A program made the position numbers and the translations under genes. From Methanobrevibacter sp. (GTDB taxonomy: Archaea > Methanobacteriota > Methanobacteria > Methanobacteriales > Methanobacteriaceae), in NCBI RefSeq assembly GCF_017447225.1, contig NZ_JAFSNZ010000043.1:1533-65532 (forward strand): a DNA stretch of 64,000 nt, written 5' to 3'. Within the stretch, counting starts at the first letter, position 1. The number at the start of each line of letters is the position of its first letter. This document shows positions 2,685-63,514 of the stretch, in pieces. Below the pieces are notes generated by a model. It saw only the letters and a program-made list of their open reading frames with translations. It did not search any database and was not told where the DNA came from.

Positions 2685-2892
2685 ATTGGGTTGTCTAGTT
2701 GAAAAGTCTTCACCATCTACTGAATTTTTTATATTCAGATATTTTCCATCTTTTTAACTCTGTACAAAGAAAAAAACAACATTTTTCCTTTAAATTTTTT
2801 TTAATTGAAAATAAATTACCCAAATCACAACCACATCAAACCTGCACCAAAATAAACCCAATTAAAAAATCCAAAATAATTTTTGATGAATT

Positions 2893-3057
2893 TTCAGGAA
2901 ATGTTAAGGGAAATTTCAGCAAATCTTCATGGAAATTATAGTGAATATTAAGTGAATCTTCAGCAAATATTCATGGAATATTCACCAAATTTTCAGTGAA
3001 TATTCATAGAACTTTCAGGAAATATTAGGGCAATGTTCATGAAATTTTCATATATTT
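2893..3057. repeat. 15 gap-free tandem 11-bp units, consensus TTCAnnrAATn, with a 44-bp higher-order period
   Basis: Read directly: ttcaggaaatg ttaagggaaat ttcagcaaatc ttcatggaaat tatagtgaata ttaagtgaatc ttcagcaaata ttcatggaata ttcaccaaatt ttcagtgaata ttcatagaact ttcaggaaata ttagggcaatg ttcatgaaatt ttcatatattt. T1 and A8 are invariant and A9 is 14/15. Confidence 0.9.
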
Positions 3058-3145
3058 ATTTAAACATTTGAAAAAAAATTATTTACATGAACATATTTCA
3101 ATAACTCATGAAAAGTTATGGGACATAGAAAAATTTAATGCTGTG

Positions 3146-3943
3146 ATGAAAATGATGATAGATGAAAACTACATTGACAAGGACATATTATTTATAGTAA
3201 ATTCAGAAATCCGACTGCAGATATTAACGGAGCTTAAAAATGAACCCCAAACGGTAAGAGAGCTAGTTGACAGGACCAATATGGCATACAGTTCCGTATC
3301 AAATAACCTGAGCAAACTGGAGTACAAAAACCATGTGATTAAGGAGGACAGAATCTACACAATCAATCCGATGACCCGAATATACTTTGACCAGATTATG
3401 GAATTCAAGAAAAGCATAGACGTGGTACAAAATTTTAATAACTTCTGGTACAAACATGATATTACCTATATTAACATCAATTTAATAGAAGATATTACTA
3501 AGTTATACAAATCTAAACTAATAGAAACTAACCCGATTGACATATACAAGACACATAATAACATCAAAAAGAATCTGGAAAAATCCCGAAACGTTAAAGG
3601 AATTCTTCCATACATCCATCCGGAATATCCGAAATTAATGGAAAAGATTTTGAAAAGTAACGGCAAAATTGAGCTGATTATGGAAAAAAGCATATATCGG
3701 GGACTTATCTCACAGATAGATGAAAAAGTAAAAAGGCAGGCCAAGAAAGAGGGAAGATTGAAAATTCATGTTCTGAAAGAAAATTTAGAGATTTATCTGC
3801 TGATTTGTGATAATAAAATGAATCTGGGACTGTTTAAAAACGACGGAAGTTATGATCAAAACAGGATATTGACTTCAGATACGCATGAGTCCATCAATTG
3901 GGCTAATAGTCTGTTTGATACAATCAAAGAAAAAGTGATTTAA
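3146..3943 (+). CDS. winged-helix transcriptional regulator, DUF1724 (FilR1-type C-terminal domain) family
   Basis: N-terminal ArsR-like wHTH (SEIRLQILTELKNEPQTVRELVDRTNMAYSSVSNNLSKLEYKNHV) plus a ~180-aa C-terminal domain shared with the next gene. The track start is a TTG at 3068. I prefer the first in-frame ATG at 3146, which gives a length similar to the paralog, but the start is uncertain. Confidence 0.6.
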   Translation: MKMMIDENYIDKDILFIVNSEIRLQILTELKNEPQTVRELVDRTNMAYSSVSNNLSKLEYKNHVIKEDRIYTINPMTRIYFDQIMEFKKSIDVVQNFNNFWYKHDITYININLIEDITKLYKSKLIETNPIDIYKTHNNIKKNLEKSRNVKGILPYIHPEYPKLMEKILKSNGKIELIMEKSIYRGLISQIDEKVKRQAKKEGRLKIHVLKENLEIYLLICDNKMNLGLFKNDGSYDQNRILTSDTHESINWANSLFDTIKEKVI

Positions 3944-4753
3944 ATGGCAGCCAAAAACATGAACGAAACACGGGAATTCAAAAACGTCAAGTATCTGCTG
4001 ACCTCATCTATGCGCACTTTAATTCTGGTTGTACTCTATAACAACAACAAAACCCTCAATGAAATAAGAGACGAACTGCAAAAGCCTTCAGCAACAATAT
4101 TGCATGGACTAAAAGAACTTGAGGAAAACAATCTGATTAAAAAGGACAAAAAGGAGTACTCTCTTACTTCAAACGGATATCTTCTTTCGACAAACATAAT
4201 AAAACTGATAAACAACTGGTATTCCATTGAAACACACAAGGATTTCTGGAATAGCCACGACCTGAGTGGCATTCCAGAAGAATATCTGAATAAGCTGTAT
4301 CTCTTGAAAGATGCTGAATTAGTTTCATCCACAACCAGTGACTTATCCAATGCATTCAATACATACATACAACTGCTCAGGACTTCAGCAAGCATTAAAA
4401 TGATTCTGCCGATATACTCTGAAAATCATTTTAAATACATCATAAAGCTACTGAAAAGCGACAGCATACAACATCTGACAATACTGATTAACAAGAAAAT
4501 ACTTAGAACCATGAGAAAAAGCAGATATTTGAAAAAGACAATACTGAAAAACAGGAAAGTGACAGTGCTCGACATGGACAGGAATCCGAAAATATTTCTG
4601 ACATATTCAGAGGAATTCATGACATTGACATTGTTTTTTAAGGATAAGCACTACGATGATTCCCAAATGATAGTTGACAGAAGCGAAAACTCTATACGAT
4701 GGGCGAAAGGACTATTTAATTATTACATGGAAGATTCCAATGACAGACAATAA
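3944..4753 (+). CDS. winged-helix transcriptional regulator, DUF1724 family (paralog of the preceding gene)
   Basis: 269 aa. wHTH (MRTLILVVLYNNNKTLNEIRDELQKPSATILHGLKELEENNLI) and the same C-terminal architecture ending in a WA..LF motif (IRWAKGLFNYY versus INWANSLFDTI). The ATG directly abuts the TAA of the upstream gene. Confidence 0.6.
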   Translation: MAAKNMNETREFKNVKYLLTSSMRTLILVVLYNNNKTLNEIRDELQKPSATILHGLKELEENNLIKKDKKEYSLTSNGYLLSTNIIKLINNWYSIETHKDFWNSHDLSGIPEEYLNKLYLLKDAELVSSTTSDLSNAFNTYIQLLRTSASIKMILPIYSENHFKYIIKLLKSDSIQHLTILINKKILRTMRKSRYLKKTILKNRKVTVLDMDRNPKIFLTYSEEFMTLTLFFKDKHYDDSQMIVDRSENSIRWAKGLFNYYMEDSNDRQ

Positions 4754-5021
4754 CAATAAACTGAAAATACTATTATTTCAAAAGAAAGGCGGTAAAACTT
4801 CAGCAAGAATAATCGAACAGCTACTGATTAGGCCATATAATCCTAATCAGATTGCAGAATTGCTGGATATCAGCTACAACACAGCATACTATCATATGCA
4901 AATTCTGCAAAAATACCATTTCATTGAAAAAAAGAACGACGAATACGGTTCATTCTATGAAGCGACCGAAGCTTTATTAAAGGAAAGCGAATCCTTTTTT
5001 AAGTTGAAAGAACTTATATAA
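4740..5021 (+). CDS. small winged-helix (ArsR-like) DNA-binding protein
   Basis: 93 aa from the ATG at 4740 (MTDNNNKLKILLFQKKGGKTSARIIEQLLIRPYNPNQIAELLDISYNTAYYHMQILQKYHFIEKK). It overlaps the previous gene by 14 nt. The track start at 4674 would lie deep inside the upstream CDS. Confidence 0.5.
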   Translation: MTDNNNKLKILLFQKKGGKTSARIIEQLLIRPYNPNQIAELLDISYNTAYYHMQILQKYHFIEKKNDEYGSFYEATEALLKESESFFKLKELI

Positions 5022-5056: not shown

Positions 5057-5560
5057 ATGGAAAGTAAAACAACAAAAGAGCATCAGAGCGCATCTTCAAA
5101 AGACATAACTTGTGGAATCATTACATTAAGCGATAGCAGAAGCAAAAAGGAAGATTTATCCGGAGATTATCTTGAAGAGGAAATAAATAAAAGATATACC
5201 TTAAAATCAAGACTTGTAATCAAAGATGAAGCAGAGCCTTTGACAGAAGCTATTGAGAAAATGGTTGATGAAAATATTGATGTCATCCTAACTAATGGCG
5301 GTACAGGCCTTAGCATGAGAGATATTACAGTCGAAACCGTTGAAAAGTTATTTGACAAAAAAATCGATGGTTTTGGAGAAATATTCAGACATGAATCCTA
5401 TCTAGAAATAGGTTCAGGTGCTCTTCTTTCACGGGCAACAGCAGGTGTCTATAAAAAGTGTTGCATATTTTCCATGCCAGGATCACCTAACGCAGTTAAA
5501 ACCGCAACAAAAATAATAATTGATGAACTGCCACATATCGTTCATCATGCGCAAAAATAA
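5057..5560 (+). CDS. moaB: molybdenum cofactor biosynthesis protein B (MoaB/MogA family)
   Basis: 167 aa. MoCF_biosynth motifs ILTNGGTGLSMRDITVE and FSMPGSPNAV. GGTGAT Shine-Dalgarno sequence 4 nt upstream of the ATG. Confidence 0.75.
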   Translation: MESKTTKEHQSASSKDITCGIITLSDSRSKKEDLSGDYLEEEINKRYTLKSRLVIKDEAEPLTEAIEKMVDENIDVILTNGGTGLSMRDITVETVEKLFDKKIDGFGEIFRHESYLEIGSGALLSRATAGVYKKCCIFSMPGSPNAVKTATKIIIDELPHIVHHAQK

Positions 5561-10443: not shown

Positions 10444-10626
10444 TTCTATCCCTTAACTTAAAATTTATCTCAATATTGAAATTTGCATATGATTAATTTT
10501 TAAATTTAAAAATTATGTTATACCATACACTATAATTATCTAATATTAAATATTGTTGTCATACTATTTAAATTAAACCCTTAAATTAACTAAAAATAGA
10601 AACAAAAAAGATATAGAAACCAGTAG

Positions 10627-10661
10627 AAAAATATAGAAAAAAATAGAAAAAATAAAAAAAA
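10627..10661 (-). terminator. oligo-T termination region downstream of asd
   Basis: The minus strand downstream of the asd TGA reads ...CATTTATTTTTTTTATTTTTTCTATTTTTTTCTATATTTTTC. A T8 run begins 14 nt after the stop and is followed by T6, T7 and T5 runs. Oligo-T is the canonical archaeal termination signal. Confidence 0.45.
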
Positions 10662-10674
10662 TAAATGAGTTAAA

Positions 10675-24131: not shown

Positions 24132-24213
24132 GTTGGAAAAAAACCGTCACCATATATTTTTTAAAAAATAATCTGATTTTAAAATAAGTTATGAAAAATA
24201 AGAAAATTAGTAA

Positions 24214-24286
24214 TGCCATGGGCCGGACTTGAACCAGCGACATCTAGATCTTCAGTCTAGCGTTCTCCCATCTGAACTACCATGGC
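24214..24286 (-). tRNA. tRNA-Phe (GAA)
   Basis: The reverse complement folds by hand: GCCATGG TA GTTC AGATGGGA GAAC G CTAGA CTGAAGA TCTAG ATGTC GCTGG TTCAAGT CCGGC CCATGGC A. All four stems are intact, the anticodon is GAA, and no CCA is encoded. Confidence 0.92.
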
Positions 24287-24289
24287 ACA

Positions 24290-24361
24290 TGGACCGAACG
24301 AGATTCGAACTCGTGATCTCCTCCACGTCAAAGAGGAATCATACCCCTAGACCACCGGTCC
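24290..24361 (-). tRNA. tRNA-Val (GAC)
   Basis: The reverse complement is GGACCGGTGGTCTAGGGGTATGATTCCTCTTTGACGTGGAGGAGATCACGAGTTCGAATCTCGTTCGGTCCA. Acceptor GGACCGG/TCGGTCC, anticodon stem CCTCT/GGAGG, loop TTGACGT, T-arm ACGAG-TTCGAAT-CTCGT. Confidence 0.88.
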
Positions 24362-54053: not shown

Positions 54054-56642
54054 TTAGAATAGTGGATCTTTCACCATTCCAATTCTAAATGAATTCAGGA
54101 TAACCAAAAGGGTTAATCCCAAGTCTCCGAAACCTACAGACATCATCAATGTGATTATTCCCAGAATAGCCAATACTACACAGAGTAACTTAACTGCAAT
54201 AGCTACTGTAATGTTCTGTTTGATGATGCTCATTGTCTTATGGCTTAAAGAGAACAGGTAAGGCAATTTGGAAATATCATCCTGCATTAATGCAACATCA
54301 GCTGTTTCAATAGCAACATCAGATCCTGCAGCACCCATAGCAATACCGATATTAGCTCTCGCAAGTGCCGGTGCATCGTTAATACCGTCACCAACCATAG
54401 CAACATCACCGAATTTATTTCTGATTGTATCCAGGATATTCAATTTGTCTTCAGGCATCAGATTTGAATAAACATATTTTATTCCAATCTCATCTGCAAC
54501 CTTGTGAGCGGCAATCTTGTTATCACCTGTCAACATTACTGTCTGTACTCCCTGTTTATTTAAATCAGCAATGACTTCTGATGCGTTGTCCCTGATTTTA
54601 TCGGATACTGTAATTAATGCCAAAACATTTTGTGAGTTTCCGACAAATACCACAGTTTTTCCTTCTGCAGAGTATTTGTTGACATCATCATGTGAAATTT
54701 CAAAGCTGCTGCCTTCAATCAGTGATTCGTTGGCTGCGTAATACTGTTCGCCATCAATGAATCCCACAATTCCTTTACCAGGAACGTTTTTGAAATCGCT
54801 TATTTCTTCAAATTCTATGTCATTTAATGTAGCATAATTTACAATAGCCTGTGCAATAGGGTGTGAAGACTGGTTTTCCAGAGACGCTGCAATTTTAACA
54901 GCATCATCTTTTGAGATTGAATCATCTAAAACTTCAATTTCACTTAATTCCAATTTACCTTCTGTTAATGTACCTGTTTTATCAAATATGACTGCTTTTA
55001 TCCCTTTCATTTCCTCAACATATGTACTTCCCTTAATCAAAACACCGTTTCTGGTAGCGGAAGTAATAGCAGACACCATACCGACAGGTGTTGAAATCAG
55101 GAATGCACAAGGACATGAAATTACCAGAAGTGAAAGTGCCTTATAAATCCAGTCAATCAAATTCTGACCGAATAACAATGGAGGAATGAATGCGACACAA
55201 GCTGCAGCAACCATCATGACAGGAGTATAATATTTAGCAACTTTTTCAACTAAAGACTCTGTTTCAGATCTGTTGAGCTGTGATCTTTTGACTAAAGTTA
55301 CAATCTTGGAAATTACAGAATCCTTTGCCTTTTTAGTTACAACCATTTCAAAGTATCCATCTTCGTTAACAGTTCCTGAAAATACCTCATCACCAACTTC
55401 CTTAAGGACAGGAACACTTTCACCAGTAATTGAAGCCTGATTGACTGAAGATGAACCTGAAATAACATTACCGTCCAATGGAACTTTATCTCCAGGTTTA
55501 ACAATTACAATATCGCCGATGTTTACGTCATCAACATTTTTCAGCTCTTCGGAATCCCCCACTTTAACTCTAGCGGTTTCAGGAGCGATTTCGACTAAGG
55601 ATTTGATTGAACGTTTAGCTCTGTGTTCAGCATAGTCTTCAAGGAATTCTGCAATATAGTAAAGGAATGTTACAGCAGCACCTTCTTCAGGGTGTCCAAT
55701 GATAAATGAAGCAACACAAGCAATACACATAAGCATTGCCGGACCGACAGTGTGCCTTTTAACCAATGACCTGTAAGCCATTCCTGCAATTTCATAACCT
55801 GCAATTATAGCTGCAATCATGAAAATGATTGTGACAACAGTTGAATTGAATGATAAGAATTCTAAAATGTGGCCTGCTGCAAACATGATTCCGCTTGCAA
55901 CGATGATTTGGATAGGTCTGTTAGCTATTAAAGGTTTTCCTTCAGCTAAAAGTTCCTCTTCCTCATGTCCGTGATCATGGTCATGGTCATCATCTGCACA
56001 GTCAGGACAACCGCAAATGCTTATTTCCACATCATCGTCATCGTGGTCATGGCAGGAACAATCCGGGTCTGAACAGGTATCCTTTTCTTCATGTTCATGG
56101 TCGTGGTCATGACAATCACAATCCGGGTCACTACAGGAATCCTCTTCATGCTCATGCTCATCAGAACAACAATCATCATCACAACAAGAATCCTCATGCT
56201 CGTGTTCATGCTCATGCTCGTGTTCATGCTCATGCTCATCAGAACAACAATCATCATCACAACAAGAATCCTCATGTTCATGTTCATGTTCATGGTCGTG
56301 ATCATGACAATCACAATCAGGATCGCTACAGGAATCCTCCTCTTCATGCTCATGCTCATGATGATGTTCATGGTCGTGGTCGTGATCATGGTCATCTGCA
56401 CAGTCAGGACAGCCACAAATGTTTATATCCACGTCTTCATCATAATCTATTTCTTCTCTGTGATCATGCACACTTAAATCTGTATTTGCTTGATAATCTC
56501 TTAATAATTGTTTATCAAAGTGCTGTCTATTCTCACAGTGAATTTCCTCACAATTAGGATCAAAACAAATGAAATTGAAATGTTCTGGATTGTGACAGTC
56601 TTTATCATCACAATCATGTTCATAACACTTATTTTCTGTCAT
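54054..56642 (-). CDS. heavy-metal translocating P1B-type ATPase (Cd/Zn/Co/Pb class) with a His/Cys/Asp/Glu-rich N-terminal domain
   Basis: 862 aa. TM6 CPC (LLVISCPCAFLISTPV), phosphorylation site FDKTGTLT, SSHPIAQAI and hinge VGDGINDAPAL. No ferredoxin-fold HMA (GMxCxxC) domain is visible; the first ~230 aa are low-complexity metal-ligand repeats. Confidence 0.9.
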   Translation of the reverse strand: MTENKCYEHDCDDKDCHNPEHFNFICFDPNCEEIHCENRQHFDKQLLRDYQANTDLSVHDHREEIDYDEDVDINICGCPDCADDHDHDHDHEHHHEHEHEEEDSCSDPDCDCHDHDHEHEHEHEDSCCDDDCCSDEHEHEHEHEHEHEHEDSCCDDDCCSDEHEHEEDSCSDPDCDCHDHDHEHEEKDTCSDPDCSCHDHDDDDVEISICGCPDCADDDHDHDHGHEEEELLAEGKPLIANRPIQIIVASGIMFAAGHILEFLSFNSTVVTIIFMIAAIIAGYEIAGMAYRSLVKRHTVGPAMLMCIACVASFIIGHPEEGAAVTFLYYIAEFLEDYAEHRAKRSIKSLVEIAPETARVKVGDSEELKNVDDVNIGDIVIVKPGDKVPLDGNVISGSSSVNQASITGESVPVLKEVGDEVFSGTVNEDGYFEMVVTKKAKDSVISKIVTLVKRSQLNRSETESLVEKVAKYYTPVMMVAAACVAFIPPLLFGQNLIDWIYKALSLLVISCPCAFLISTPVGMVSAITSATRNGVLIKGSTYVEEMKGIKAVIFDKTGTLTEGKLELSEIEVLDDSISKDDAVKIAASLENQSSHPIAQAIVNYATLNDIEFEEISDFKNVPGKGIVGFIDGEQYYAANESLIEGSSFEISHDDVNKYSAEGKTVVFVGNSQNVLALITVSDKIRDNASEVIADLNKQGVQTVMLTGDNKIAAHKVADEIGIKYVYSNLMPEDKLNILDTIRNKFGDVAMVGDGINDAPALARANIGIAMGAAGSDVAIETADVALMQDDISKLPYLFSLSHKTMSIIKQNITVAIAVKLLCVVLAILGIITLMMSVGFGDLGLTLLVILNSFRIGMVKDPLF
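55962..56423 (-). repeat. in-frame repetitive DNA encoding the HEHE/DSCC/CGCPDC metal-ligand modules
   Basis: A near-identical ~50-nt block (catgctcatgctcatcagaacaacaatcatcatcacaacaagaatcctcatg) occurs twice, starting near 56148 and 56225. Other cat/gtc/aca-rich units recur throughout. Confidence 0.8.
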
Positions 56643-60451: not shown

Positions 60452-61210
60452 TCAATCTACAAATCCCATTACTTTTACAAATGGAACAGTAGTGAATTGA
60501 CTGAATAATATGAAAAATATAATCAATGCGATTGCTAAATATATTGCTTCTCCTTTTTTATTTCTATTTTCAAATGGCATATATTTATTGATTTTATCTG
60601 GAAATACCAGCCAAATGAAGCAGAATGATGTTGATAATATTAAAGCAATTATATTTGTTGGTGAAGTTTCAAAAAATCCTTGAACATAGCCCAAATAACA
60701 ACAGATAGCTAAAACTGGACAATAATAATTAGGTTCATATCCTGCATCATATACTATTTTACCGTTTTCTTCCAGACTAGCATCATTGAATGTTTTAAAT
60801 CTCAAACCTATTGCCAAAAATGGCAATGCAAAGATGATAGATAGTAAAATTGATGTGTATACGTTAATATCCGCACATAAACATATTAAGAGCAAAGCTA
60901 ATGCAGTTGTTGAAAAACCCAAAAGAGTAAATGCACCAATTTGTCGTGAATATCCTCTAAAATTATTGAAATTATACAAGCCATATTTTTTGTCCAATTC
61001 GTCACTATAATACTCTACAAGAAATATTCCACCTAAAGAAAATAAGAGCAGGAAGAAAAATAGAAAGCCTAATAAAGTAAAACTTGACATGGCTATTGCA
61101 ATAATTAAAAATATTCCAAATATTTTCAGTGCACGTTTTTTCACAGTTTCCTTATCTGAAAAATATTTATCATTTCCATCAAAATCGAATAAACCAAATA
61201 TATTCATCAT
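60452..61210 (-). CDS. 7-TM membrane protein, paralog 1 of a local pair
   Basis: 252 aa polytopic protein. See the paralog. No recognised family. Confidence 0.5.
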   Translation of the reverse strand: MMNIFGLFDFDGNDKYFSDKETVKKRALKIFGIFLIIAIAMSSFTLLGFLFFFLLLFSLGGIFLVEYYSDELDKKYGLYNFNNFRGYSRQIGAFTLLGFSTTALALLLICLCADINVYTSILLSIIFALPFLAIGLRFKTFNDASLEENGKIVYDAGYEPNYYCPVLAICCYLGYVQGFFETSPTNIIALILSTSFCFIWLVFPDKINKYMPFENRNKKGEAIYLAIALIIFFILFSQFTTVPFVKVMGFVD

Positions 61211-61255
61211 ACCCCTCGAAATAAAACAAACAAAATATATTCATCATTTCATCAG

Positions 61256-63514
61256 TTACGGTAAAGGAACACCAGTAAAACTAGAAACATAACCCTCCCC
61301 AGTATCTGTAACTGCTTTATAAAAATTTTTTCCACTTGGATCTCTTAATACCCCATTTGATAAACAATTAAGTCCCAAACCACCTAAACCAAATATTACT
61401 GCAGAACCTAATAATGGTTTTGCTAAAGCAGGGTATCTTATAGCAGATACTATACACATAGATGATGCTTCAATTGCAAAATCAGCGAAAATTCCTGTTG
61501 CATATTCAAATGCAATCCATTGGTCTTCAGTAATAGTTAAACTATTAAAATTTTCACTGAAACGATTATTAATAGAAGATTGTGAATTATTTACAATAAA
61601 TATTTCATAGACTTTTCCACTATTATTTTGTGTATTATCAGTCAAACCATCACAAAAACAATATGAATAATCTGAAGATAATGCTCCCTTATATAAAAAT
61701 CCATCAAATTCAGTAGTTACAGAAACAATTCCTGACGATTGATTAATTATTAACTTTTCAGAATAATCTTTCAAATCAACAATCAATAGTTCATTATTTT
61801 GTGCTAAACCAAACCAATCACCACATAAAATATGTTGTGATAATGAAGAAAGAGATCCGATAGAATTTATATTTGAAAATCCTAAAACTATACTTTCCAT
61901 ATCACTTAGCATGATTGAACATTCAAATCTGAAGTTTTTCATATTTGTATCATTATTGCTAGACAATATCATGTTCATACTTGGGTTAGGTACATGAATA
62001 TAACTCACACCACCATTCATTACTCCTGACATTACTACAGTATTTTCATTACGTGTCCATGTTAAATTATAAAAATCATCCTTTTCATTAGCTAAATTAT
62101 CACTCATATACATTGTCATTAAACCATTTAAAAATGTTCCATAACTAGCTTTTCTAATACCCATAGTATAGTTCTTATTTAACCAATAATTTATATCTTC
62201 ATTGGATATTTTTCTATCAGCAATCGTGAATGTTTGTATTGTGTTATATCCTGCTTGAGAATCAACGAAAACACCTGTATTGATTTTTTCTGTTTTTTCA
62301 ATTATTTCATTATTAATTATCAATTCTGTATCCATATATTCAAAATCAGGATTTTTATCAATCCTATCAGTTTCAGGAGTATAATGTAAAGTAGTATTTG
62401 TGTTTGTATAATTTAATAAATTTAAATTTCCATTTAAAAATTGATTATATGTAACATTATAAAAGAATATACCATTATAATAAACGTTTCCATTTGCTAA
62501 TTGTATTTTAAGTCCCGCATCATCATTAAACATTGAATTAGAGTATAAAACTTCTCCCCATTGATTGAAGTTTTTAATAAATGAAATTGCTTGTAAATCA
62601 AAACCATTTCTGTAAAGAGATGAATATGCGACACTGAATCCATTAATGTTGTTTTCATTGATTGTGTCATAATAATAAATTTTAACGTAATCTTTTTCAG
62701 TTTTAAGAAGGATTCCTTGAACTGTAGGCACATAATTTTGATTTACAGTAATTTTTTCTCCTGTTTTAGAAATGAAATAATTATCACCATCTGATAATTT
62801 TGTATAATTATTACTATATGCAAGACTAGCTTGACCATATACAAAAGCAAATATCTGTGATGTTGTAATTACAATTTCTCGAGTTTCATATACTTTTATT
62901 ATTCCATTTTCACCAGATTTAGCTATATATTCAGGAAGTAAACTATTAGGATTTACATAATTTAAGCCACTTACATTAAAATACATTGGAATATTTACAT
63001 TGTAAACTAAATTTGGTGTTAAATTTACAGTTATTATATTATTTTTTATAATTGAATTATAATATGTTGATCCAGTGTATGTTGTTGAAATTGAATATTG
63101 GCCATGAGGTAAATTTATATTAAGTTTAGCAATACCATTTTCATCAGTCATTATGGTGTGGGAAACACCATTGATTTGGAAAATAATGTTTTGATTTGGC
63201 ATTGAAAAATTATTGTTATCTTTTAAAACGGCATCAAAAGTATATCCTGTGTCTCTGAGAAGAATATTTTGTGTATTTAAATTGACATTTAATTTTGTGG
63301 AAGAGTCTACTCGTGTAATAATTTTTGTAGGTCCGGTATAAGCATTGTATTGAAATGTTCCTGAAAATGAACAATGTATAGGATAATCCTGAGGGTTTAG
63401 AAAATTGATTTTTAATTTAGCAATTCCATTATTATCACTTGTTCGTACATATGTAACACCATTAACATAGAAATTTACGTCTATATTGGGTAATGCTTTG
63501 TTTGATGGATCCAT
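61256..63514 (-). CDS. adhesin-like surface protein, distal portion (two Ig-like INGV modules, ~480-aa Asn/Tyr-rich region, C-terminal hydrophobic Gly-rich segment); probably the 3' part of a frameshifted larger gene
   Basis: 752 aa. Modules NIDVNFYVNGVTYVRTSDNNGIAKLKINF and QNIIFQINGVSHTIMTDENGIAKLNINL match the modules of the upstream fragment. The reading frame stays open 10 codons upstream of the annotated ATG and continues the module consensus there. Confidence 0.6.
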   Translation of the reverse strand: MDPSNKALPNIDVNFYVNGVTYVRTSDNNGIAKLKINFLNPQDYPIHCSFSGTFQYNAYTGPTKIITRVDSSTKLNVNLNTQNILLRDTGYTFDAVLKDNNNFSMPNQNIIFQINGVSHTIMTDENGIAKLNINLPHGQYSISTTYTGSTYYNSIIKNNIITVNLTPNLVYNVNIPMYFNVSGLNYVNPNSLLPEYIAKSGENGIIKVYETREIVITTSQIFAFVYGQASLAYSNNYTKLSDGDNYFISKTGEKITVNQNYVPTVQGILLKTEKDYVKIYYYDTINENNINGFSVAYSSLYRNGFDLQAISFIKNFNQWGEVLYSNSMFNDDAGLKIQLANGNVYYNGIFFYNVTYNQFLNGNLNLLNYTNTNTTLHYTPETDRIDKNPDFEYMDTELIINNEIIEKTEKINTGVFVDSQAGYNTIQTFTIADRKISNEDINYWLNKNYTMGIRKASYGTFLNGLMTMYMSDNLANEKDDFYNLTWTRNENTVVMSGVMNGGVSYIHVPNPSMNMILSSNNDTNMKNFRFECSIMLSDMESIVLGFSNINSIGSLSSLSQHILCGDWFGLAQNNELLIVDLKDYSEKLIINQSSGIVSVTTEFDGFLYKGALSSDYSYCFCDGLTDNTQNNSGKVYEIFIVNNSQSSINNRFSENFNSLTITEDQWIAFEYATGIFADFAIEASSMCIVSAIRYPALAKPLLGSAVIFGLGGLGLNCLSNGVLRDPSGKNFYKAVTDTGEGYVSSFTGVPLP

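Follow-up and report, generated by a model that had tools for sequence, protein, structure and literature searches.

What does a run of fifteen head-to-tail 11-bp units stand for, directly in front of a set of regulator genes in the genome of a methanogen? The question is raised by a 64,000-nucleotide stretch of Methanobrevibacter sp. (NCBI RefSeq assembly GCF_017447225.1, contig NZ_JAFSNZ010000043.1, positions 1,533 to 65,532 of the forward strand; this whole stretch is called the window below), in which positions 2893-3057 are made up of 15 gap-free consecutive 11-mers with the consensus TTCAnnGAAtn. A sequence-only reading of the window had singled out this array as a strong candidate for a multi-site operator or architectural element, and the proposal is reinforced here by the finding that about 65 Methanobrevibacter genomes have an 11-bp array at the corresponding position, where it is phase-locked to the TATA box of the operon that follows. 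The existence of the array is confirmed, it is conserved, and full-text literature searches returned no account of repeats at this locus in Methanobrevibacter, so that it is undescribed as far as those searches reach.

Recutting the sequence gave the same 15 units as the earlier reading and identical column counts, with T1 and A8 present in 15/15 units, T2, A4 and A9 in 14/15, T10 in 12/15 and C3 in 11/15. Fourteen of these units fill 2893..3046 on the plus strand (nTTCAnnGAAt at 2892-3045 when the register is anchored on the TATA box), and the fifteenth is the promoter-proximal TTCATATATTT (3047..3057, plus strand), with a repeat-like 5' half and an A/T-rich 3' half adjoining the TATA box at the position of the B recognition element (BRE). 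A degenerate distal 11-mer, TTTGATGAATT (2882..2892, plus strand), is in register with the array and fits the unit pattern, so that the array arguably has 16 units; it is also kept in L081, the closest relative of the window. Tandem Repeats Finder reported periods of 11, 22, 33 and 44 over 2888-3050, with the period-44 row on top (2.5 copies, score 116), and the self-similarity of the array was 17 at lag 11 and at most 6 at the other lags between 5 and 15. The array is non-coding, strictly phased at 11 bp and directly upstream of a three-regulator cassette, as had been claimed, and no open reading frame (ORF) of at least 40 aa in the ORF list of the window runs across the whole of it. Small ORFs are called over part of the array, one of 80 aa at 2699-2941 of the window, which terminates inside it, and one of 59 aa at 532-711 of locus L207; both look spurious and probably arise because purine-rich repeats are stop-poor.

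Within the window, the array is unique. A two-unit pattern with up to 2 mismatches matched 16 times in the window, as against 2.2 +/- 1.5 expected (0/100 shuffles reached 16), and 12 of the 16 matches fell inside the array; the four outside it (1736, 27889, 36431 and 46092) are at chance level and were rejected as further operators. A position weight matrix (PWM) of the unit likewise gave 16 matches in 2800-3200 and at most 5 in every other 200-bp bin of the window.

The array is also a property of the locus and not of this genome alone. Regulator 1, encoded directly downstream of the array, has 77 homologues, and the comparison set consisted of 80 loci from the regulator 1 homologue alignment, about 68 of which are syntenic orthologues, with L070-L080 as paralogue loci. 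The roughly 68 loci share a gene order in which a PIN gene on the minus strand, the intergenic region, reg1-reg2-reg3-moaB on the plus strand, PRT and PRC on the minus strand and, further on, cbiZ follow one another. In about 65 Methanobrevibacter genomes, across which the identity of regulator 1 falls to about 42%, the gene of this regulator is immediately preceded by an array with an 11-bp period. The lag-11 self-similarity of the orthologous loci ranges from 10 to 85, compared to 13.5 or less at any other lag (5-15), and the paralogue loci L070-L080 score at most 7 at lag 11. The loci closest to the window come from rumen and gut Methanobrevibacter metagenome-assembled genomes (MAGs). The PIN gene of most relatives directly adjoins this region as its divergent neighbour, at a distance of 130-430 nt from the TATA box. 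In the window it is separated from the array by two inserted genes, and the array has stayed with regulator 1.

The two additional genes, an acyltransferase-3 gene and a small hypothetical gene (126 aa), occupy 1130-2684 between the array and the PIN/Nob1-like gene, which lies on the other strand; the pair looks like a lineage-specific insertion, and at the corresponding position L081 has about 900 nt without a called gene. As to the labels of the loci compared, L062 is labelled Bacteroidaceae, yet holds the full syntenic Methanobrevibacter locus and is probably a mis-binned contig, L080, labelled Prevotella, holds only more distant homologues of regulators 1 and 2 (32-35% identity), and L042 and L071 belong to one MAG with two versions of the locus carrying different arrays, which suggests a mixed-strain bin.

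What is conserved across the loci is the 11-bp period, the position and the register to the TATA box, and what varies is the copy number and the core of the unit (TTCAnnGAAT, TTGGAAnAAG, nnnGAAnAnnT, GGTAGGGAATT). In the TATA-anchored register, the unit reads nTTCAnngAAt in group A, the clade of the window (84 units), TTGGaAnAagt in group B (75 units), tttGAAnAaat in group C (50 units), ttggangaAAa in group D (50 units), GGTAGGGAATT in group E (two loci, 10 units) and TTTAAGGGAAG in group F (two loci, 10 units). The logo of the 84 window-clade units has T2 at 98%, T3 at 96%, C4 at 83%, A5 at 95%, A9 at 99% and A10 at 100%, and that of clade B has G4 at 96%. Common to all unit types are TT at the unit start and AA near its end, so that an A/T-rich junction recurs every 11 bp around a lineage-specific, G/C-containing core. 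Loci have between about 2 and about 20 units. The automated count tends to be generous where the DNA is A/T-rich (random-anchor control: mean 0.5, 95th percentile 3) and is too high at some loci (16 for L065, against 8 by eye); the copy numbers of the pairs named below were read by eye.

Two features that the sequence-only reading had stressed do not extend beyond the lineage of the window. The 44-bp super-period is real in this genome, as the Tandem Repeats Finder score indicates, but it is not kept even in L081, and the other clades have 22- or 33-bp higher-order blocks or none. The TTC-N-GAA dyads do make the array of the window clade readable as TTC/GAA half-sites, but outside this clade the units are purely direct repeats (e.g., TTGGAAnAAGn), with a top strand that is purine-rich and C-poor. 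Because both are restricted to this lineage, a functional role of the dyad symmetry and of the 44-bp super-period is not supported by the comparison.

The dyad had also led to the suggestion of mini-ORB boxes, that is, of a replication-origin element, and TTCAnTGAA does bear a loose resemblance to the cores of origin-recognition boxes (ORB), although no test supports the idea. The units are direct and unidirectional and do not flank an unwinding element in inverted orientation, other clades lack the dyad, the 64-kb window shows no GC-skew switch, and there is no orc1/cdc6 next door, among the annotated conserved neighbours (the more distant genes of the window lie outside that annotation). As the array is moreover phase-locked to a promoter, we give an origin function next to no credence.

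The TATA box TATTTAAA (3057..3064, plus strand; its function is predicted) lies 89 nt before the ATG of regulator 1, is found about 90 nt ahead of the start codon across the orthologous loci, and is the most conserved intergenic element, with at least 90% column identity in 69 loci. When 11-mers are cut upward from TATTTAAA, units fall in register in essentially every orthologous locus, which means that the array is phase-locked to the TATA box. There is no such relation to the start of the divergent PIN gene, the distance to which, taken modulo 11, is spread over 10 classes. The distances previously quoted, 10 bp from the array to a TTG at 3068 and 88 bp to the ATG at 3146, are right, but the TTG is not the gene start, as the orthologues begin at ATG 3146 or 3152.

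In the usual archaeal geometry, the TATA box is centred about 26 nt upstream of +1. From this spacing, the transcription start region of the window is predicted at TTAC followed by A (3085..3089, plus strand), with +1 near 3087, and a conserved ATTAC(A/G) is found in other clades at the same offset; both the BRE and the start are placed here as standard archaeal promoter architecture would predict. The last unit of the array, TTCATATATTT, is a hybrid of a repeat unit and the BRE/TATA element: the 5' half of the proximal unit co-varies with the upstream units in every clade (TTTCA, TTGGA, TTTGA, GTTA), and its 3' half stays A-rich in every clade, where the BRE is expected. Unusual conservation is also seen in the leader (3065-3145) that joins the TATA box to the start codon, with 5 differences in 99 nt relative to L081, and the leader holds motifs, conserved within clades, around and after the predicted start, namely ATTAC(A/G)GAAAAATTCAT in many of L002-L068 and CATGAACATATTTCAA in the window, some of them with inverted repeats. 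The leader is a candidate for a second operator, which would be used by those regulators whose recognition helices do not vary (see below).

The position of the array relative to this promoter also bears on whether it might be transcribed and act at the RNA level, be it as a leader rich in repeats or as a protein sponge with numerous GGA/GAA motifs. The top strand in clades B-F, which is purine-rich, C-poor and supplied with one GGA or GAA per unit, would suit such a role, as would the small ORFs that gene callers put over the array. On the other hand, the array lies upstream of the best-conserved TATA box, itself correctly spaced to the start codon, the upstream neighbour is divergent in most genomes so that no promoter for sense transcription is evident, the array has no Rfam match, and its folding z-scores are modest (-1.5 to -3.0), with structures unrelated between clades. 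We therefore consider an RNA function very improbable.

The manner in which the array changes was read from close relatives. Regulator 1 of L081 is 89% identical to that of the window, and the flanks and the promoter/leader are well conserved; the sole length change between the two arrays is one clean 11-bp unit (16 vs 15 units), 15 of the 21 substitutions fall at the degenerate positions 5, 6, 7 and 11 of the unit (Fisher p = 0.0005), and none is found in 28 A8/A9 sites. Where regulator 1 is 99% identical, the two arrays of a pair are exactly 3 units apart in length (5 in L005 and 8 in L065; 10 in L042 and 7 in L045), and close relatives in general differ by clean indels of 11 or 33 bp. In five independent assemblies whose regulator 1 is identical, the arrays and the 676 nt upstream are identical as well, the arrays of a pair of assemblies with identical regulator 1 in a second lineage are identical too, and differences in the array appear only from about 1% protein divergence. 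The array evolves fast, via whole-unit indels under position-specific constraint, and not by phase variation; a simple-sequence contingency locus with phase-variable promoter repeats was accordingly rejected, the arrays being identical among near-identical assemblies in the two lineages sampled.

Such turnover invites the view that the array is a functionless, self-perpetuating minisatellite, in which slippage or unequal exchange copies a promoter-proximal element that is tolerated and not selected. The range of about 2 to about 20 copies without an obvious optimum, the homogenisation of units within a genome, the 22-, 33- and 44-bp blocks typical of recent duplication and the existence of one locus nearly without an array (L012, with 2 units; L020 is unclear) are all what this view would lead one to expect. 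It accounts less well for a site, a period and a TATA register that persist genus-wide despite complete turnover of the unit sequence, for the non-random substitutions between close relatives (p = 0.0005), and for the stability within lineages seen in the five assemblies and the second pair, and we hold it to be improbable. Neither is the array one copy of a dispersed minisatellite, a possibility raised in the sequence-only reading, as in-phase runs of units are confined to the array. Genome-specific unit PWMs gave 73 runs of at least three in-phase matches in arrays and a single run elsewhere in about 850 kb, a sample that included the full window and the paralogue loci from the same MAGs; the single run is the same array region on the other strand. 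A degenerate three-unit pattern searched in metagenomes was found in at least 120 contigs, almost all with unrelated 11-bp satellites from other organisms, and among the matches listed only L137 and probably L156 are Methanobrevibacter. These satellites are not homologous to the element of the window and are uninformative about it and about a regulon.

Downstream of the array, the operon, in which the four genes are tightly packed, encodes three winged helix-turn-helix (wHTH) regulators and a MoaB-like protein. Regulator 1 (3146..3943, plus strand) has an N-terminal ArsR-like wHTH and a FilR1_middle domain (DUF1724; PF08350, E 5e-26, 91.6 bits), and regulator 2 (3944..4753, plus strand; PF08350, E 5e-16, 59.4 bits), the start codon of which comes immediately after the regulator 1 stop, is its paralogue with 22-25% identity. 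With this wHTH and with PF08350 scores above the cut-off of 27 bits, both belong to the Msr/FilR1 family, and not to the TrmB family, the helix-turn-helix (HTH) domain of which (PF01978) scored 18.4 bits against a cut-off of 25.6 bits. Regulator 3 (4740..5021, plus strand) is a small ArsR-like wHTH protein of 93 aa, the gene of which overlaps the end of regulator 2 by 14 nt; its start is most likely 4740 and not 4674. A moaB-like molybdopterin-binding gene (5057..5560, plus strand; PF00994) is the fourth gene of the cluster in all orthologous loci.

Searching regulator 1 by sequence against the PDB gave nothing significant, and against NCBIfam it gave MsvR/ArsR HTH matches only, all of them sub-threshold. 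The best full-length PDB structural match of its AlphaFold model (mean predicted local distance difference test, pLDDT, 73.6) was TrmBL2, with E 1.7e-10 and a template modelling score (TM-score) of 0.42, a low value because domain orientations differ; regulator 1 is predicted to resemble TrmBL2 at the fold level only. The C-terminal FilR1_middle/DUF1724 domain of regulator 1 is predicted to have a phospholipase D (PLD)-like fold and matches NucT, Nuc, Zucchini and FAM83. For regulator 3, prediction from the single sequence gave nothing but long helices at a pLDDT of 64.8, a model too poor for use. Among 62 loci, the core of the regulator 1 recognition helix, (A/T)YSS(V/I)S(N/S)N, is nearly invariant, and the recognition helix of regulator 2, KPSATILHGLKELE, has 2 variants, whereas that of regulator 3, the fastest-evolving gene of the cluster, has 55.

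Considering the anatomy of the array, its place in front of these genes and its register to the TATA box, we propose that it is a helically phased operator or upstream activating array that carries one protomer per 11-bp unit up to the BRE/TATA box, the binders most likely being the operon's regulators, and we rate the chance of this proposal as even. The anatomy of the array, its conservation and uniqueness, its register to the TATA box, the pattern of constraint, the manner of turnover and the families of the proteins are shown by the sequences; that protein binds here, which protein it is and in which direction it would regulate are what we infer. The array would serve as a cis-regulatory protein-docking platform of the reg1-reg2-reg3-moaB promoter, with each unit offering one binding position per helical turn and the units running head to tail to the BRE/TATA. 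Its most likely occupants would be the operon's own winged-helix regulators, forming an autoregulatory loop. Regulators 1 and 2, given their predicted TrmBL2-like fold, might form a polymerising scaffold that reads the shape of the conserved A/T-rich junctions, and regulator 3 may contact the lineage-specific core of the unit. A protomer on the proximal hybrid unit would touch or overlap the BRE, and occupancy of the array could in this way recruit or block TFB/TBP; activation is favoured, because the characterised Msr/FilR1 members are activators that bind their own promoters. The length of the array would set cooperativity and threshold, and gain or loss of whole units or of 2-4-unit blocks would always preserve the phase.

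Several observations weigh against this proposal. Its main tension is that the recognition helices of regulators 1 and 2 stay invariant while the unit core changes: near-invariant helices facing completely different clade cores imply that these two regulators do not read the core base by base, and point instead to shape readout of the A/T junctions, to regulator 3 as a specificity subunit, or to an unrelated binder. The structural match to TrmBL2 has a low TM-score, and the mean pLDDT of the model is modest. With a helix of 10.5 bp, an 11-bp spacing drifts by about 17 degrees per unit, so that a 15-unit filament would have to spiral or untwist the DNA. Unit divergence correlates best with the regulator 3 helix (Mantel r 0.51; partial r 0.415 controlling for the moaB+PRT distance), but the full-length regulators correlate with the units about equally (partial Mantel 0.37-0.40), which makes the correlation compatible with shared ancestry and a lead rather than evidence. 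A residue-to-base rule for regulator 3 was sought and no clean one was found; a K/N position follows G-rich units in some clades and fails in clade D. Lastly, no second site with the same units was found in the DNA of about 850 kb sampled, and a wider regulon is not supported.

The same tension leaves room for a DNA-shape or chromatin element that is not read by the operon's regulators, in which AAnTT junctions alternate with a G/C-containing core every 11 bp. Archaeal histones, or some other abundant protein of the nucleoid, might be excluded or positioned by such an element, or it might confer sensitivity to supercoiling, and either effect would keep the promoter in a defined state. The element would explain why TT at the start of the unit and AA near its end are all that the clades have in common while the core changes, and it needs no base-specific reading of the core, to which the invariant helices of regulators 1 and 2 are poorly suited. 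Most genomes have two divergent core promoters here with the array filling the interval, and a period of 11, not about 10, would be the wrong phase for wrapping around histones and could serve their exclusion. The non-A/T positions of the unit are, on the other hand, strongly constrained, as the C4 of the window clade and the G4 of clade B illustrate, and substitutions avoid them, which argues for sequence readout rather than shape alone; besides, the array stands at this one promoter only, in the DNA sampled. The intrinsic planar curvature that the sequence-only reading had considered is not predicted at an 11-bp period by two wedge models, which are unremarkable for the array: its end-to-end/contour ratio is 0.883, with a window median of 0.915 (32nd percentile), it is straighter than average under the AA-wedge model, and the same units set at a 10-bp period would give 0.626. 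These values are approximate. Phased A-tract curved DNA was rejected as an explanation on the same ground, the predicted curvature not standing well above the background. On balance, a shape or chromatin element of this kind seems unlikely to us.

Returning to the operator proposal, a more specific version of it, which we put forward tentatively and regard as rather doubtful, is that the array nucleates a TrmBL2-like filament of the operon's regulators, with one protomer per unit and ending on the BRE, and that the length of the array determines how cooperatively, and at what threshold, an autoregulated switch responds. The array would then be an evolvable rheostat, adjusted by whole-unit duplication and loss and by concerted change of the core alongside the fast-evolving regulator 3.

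Known systems offer partial parallels. The PHO boxes of Streptomyces coelicolor and E. coli, bound by the response regulator PhoP/PhoB, consist of contiguous 11-nt direct repeat units (DRus), each with a conserved block and an A/T-rich spacer, which take one winged-helix protomer each, head to tail and on one face, and which occur in variable number at or upstream of the core promoter (PMC2275107). The array of the window is likewise built of contiguous in-phase 11-nt direct repeats, with period 11 dominant in about 65 loci. It differs in that the adjacent regulators have an ArsR-like HTH and FilR1_middle in place of a receiver or an OmpR-type (Trans_reg_C) domain, in that the promoter is an archaeal BRE/TATA promoter, and in that the arrays, known here from sequence alone, are much longer, reaching about 20 units where PHO boxes usually have 2-4. 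In parC of plasmid R1, two sets of five 11-bp iterons are bound cooperatively by ParR, with about one dimer per iteron, and ParR autoregulates the par promoter (PMC2241845). Here, too, tandem 11-bp direct repeats stand at the promoter of the operon that encodes the proposed binder. Unlike in parC, however, they lie on the upstream side of the promoter only, the operon has three wHTH regulators and moaB and neither a ParM-like ATPase nor a ribbon-helix-helix ParR, the locus belongs to a chromosomal genus-wide synteny (PIN, PRT, PRC, cbiZ, thermosome) and not to a plasmid or mobile replicon, and the array is not predicted to be curved, whereas parC is strongly so. By architecture, the PhoP direct-repeat units and the ParR/parC iterons are the closest analogues, and the array is a member of neither class.

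On the protein side, TrmBL2, a chromatin protein and global repressor of Thermococcales, covers DNA in the form of a filament and is found at discrete AT-rich sites too (PMC4877046; PMC11840125). The predicted structure of regulator 1 shares with it a wHTH, a long helix and a PLD-like C-terminal domain, but TrmBL2 is abundant and of low sequence specificity, while the present case concerns a dedicated repeat track at one promoter. DUF1724 proteins constitute the Msr family (10.1101/2021.03.04.434021), in which FilR1 binds and stimulates its own promoter, with no motif defined (PMC3991700), and MsrA and MsrB are adjacent, co-transcribed paralogues that activate together (PMC3419521). Regulators 1 and 2 are adjacent paralogues as well, although they are without the receiver domain that FilR1 has. 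The window-clade array further recalls heat-shock elements, which are contiguous inverted nGAAn repeats, in that it reads as alternating TTC/GAA half-sites, but its period is 11 and not 10, the inverted arrangement is missing in other clades, and the proteins are unrelated.

The Msr/FilR1 (DUF1724) family is methanogen-specific and controls methanogenesis genes, and to our knowledge its members all lack a defined binding motif or repeat architecture. The locus offers a legible candidate target for this family, with up to about 20 phased units adjoining a conserved BRE/TATA, and its roughly 65 natural variants in unit number and sequence amount to a ready mutational series. Binding of the regulators in the way proposed would make this the first long direct-repeat operator in archaea at which each helical turn takes one protomer; the Msr/FilR1 factors would thereby be linked to TrmBL2-like filament formation, and array length would be shown to tune an archaeal promoter, in rumen and human-gut Methanobrevibacter relevant to methane emission. 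Should the filament with its rheostat be true, archaea would have an equivalent of the tunable tandem-repeat promoters, and a DNA target architecture would be defined for the Msr/FilR1 (DUF1724) family for the first time. Failing such binding, there would still be a conserved DNA element, phase-locked to the TATA box, that calls for another explanation.

Some minor observations may be added. Four of the unrelated metagenome contigs (L089, L142, L145 and L157; GC 0.56-0.59) share 11-bp repeats (CTTCAGAAAAT), three to four in each, ahead of a conserved CCTGATGTTTGGTTTCCCTGGGAGGTGATAAAC, and may be independent bacterial 11-bp repeats just upstream of a ribosome-binding site. Elsewhere in the window, dense 6-, 18-, 66- and 78-bp repeats (TCATGC/TCATGT...) occupy 56145-56395 inside the minus-strand ORF 54054-56642, where the coding strand would give a His/Glu/Asp-rich low-complexity stretch in a protein of 862 aa. 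A 37-bp repeat at 61159-61254 (2.6 copies, score 115) spans the junction of the minus-strand ORFs 60452-61210 and 61256-63514, and an A-rich 9/20-bp repeat, AAAAATAGA, lies at 10592-10663 and is apparently intergenic. The sole Rfam/ARAGORN matches of the window are the adjacent tRNA-Phe(GAA) and tRNA-Val(GAC) at 24213-24361 on the minus strand.

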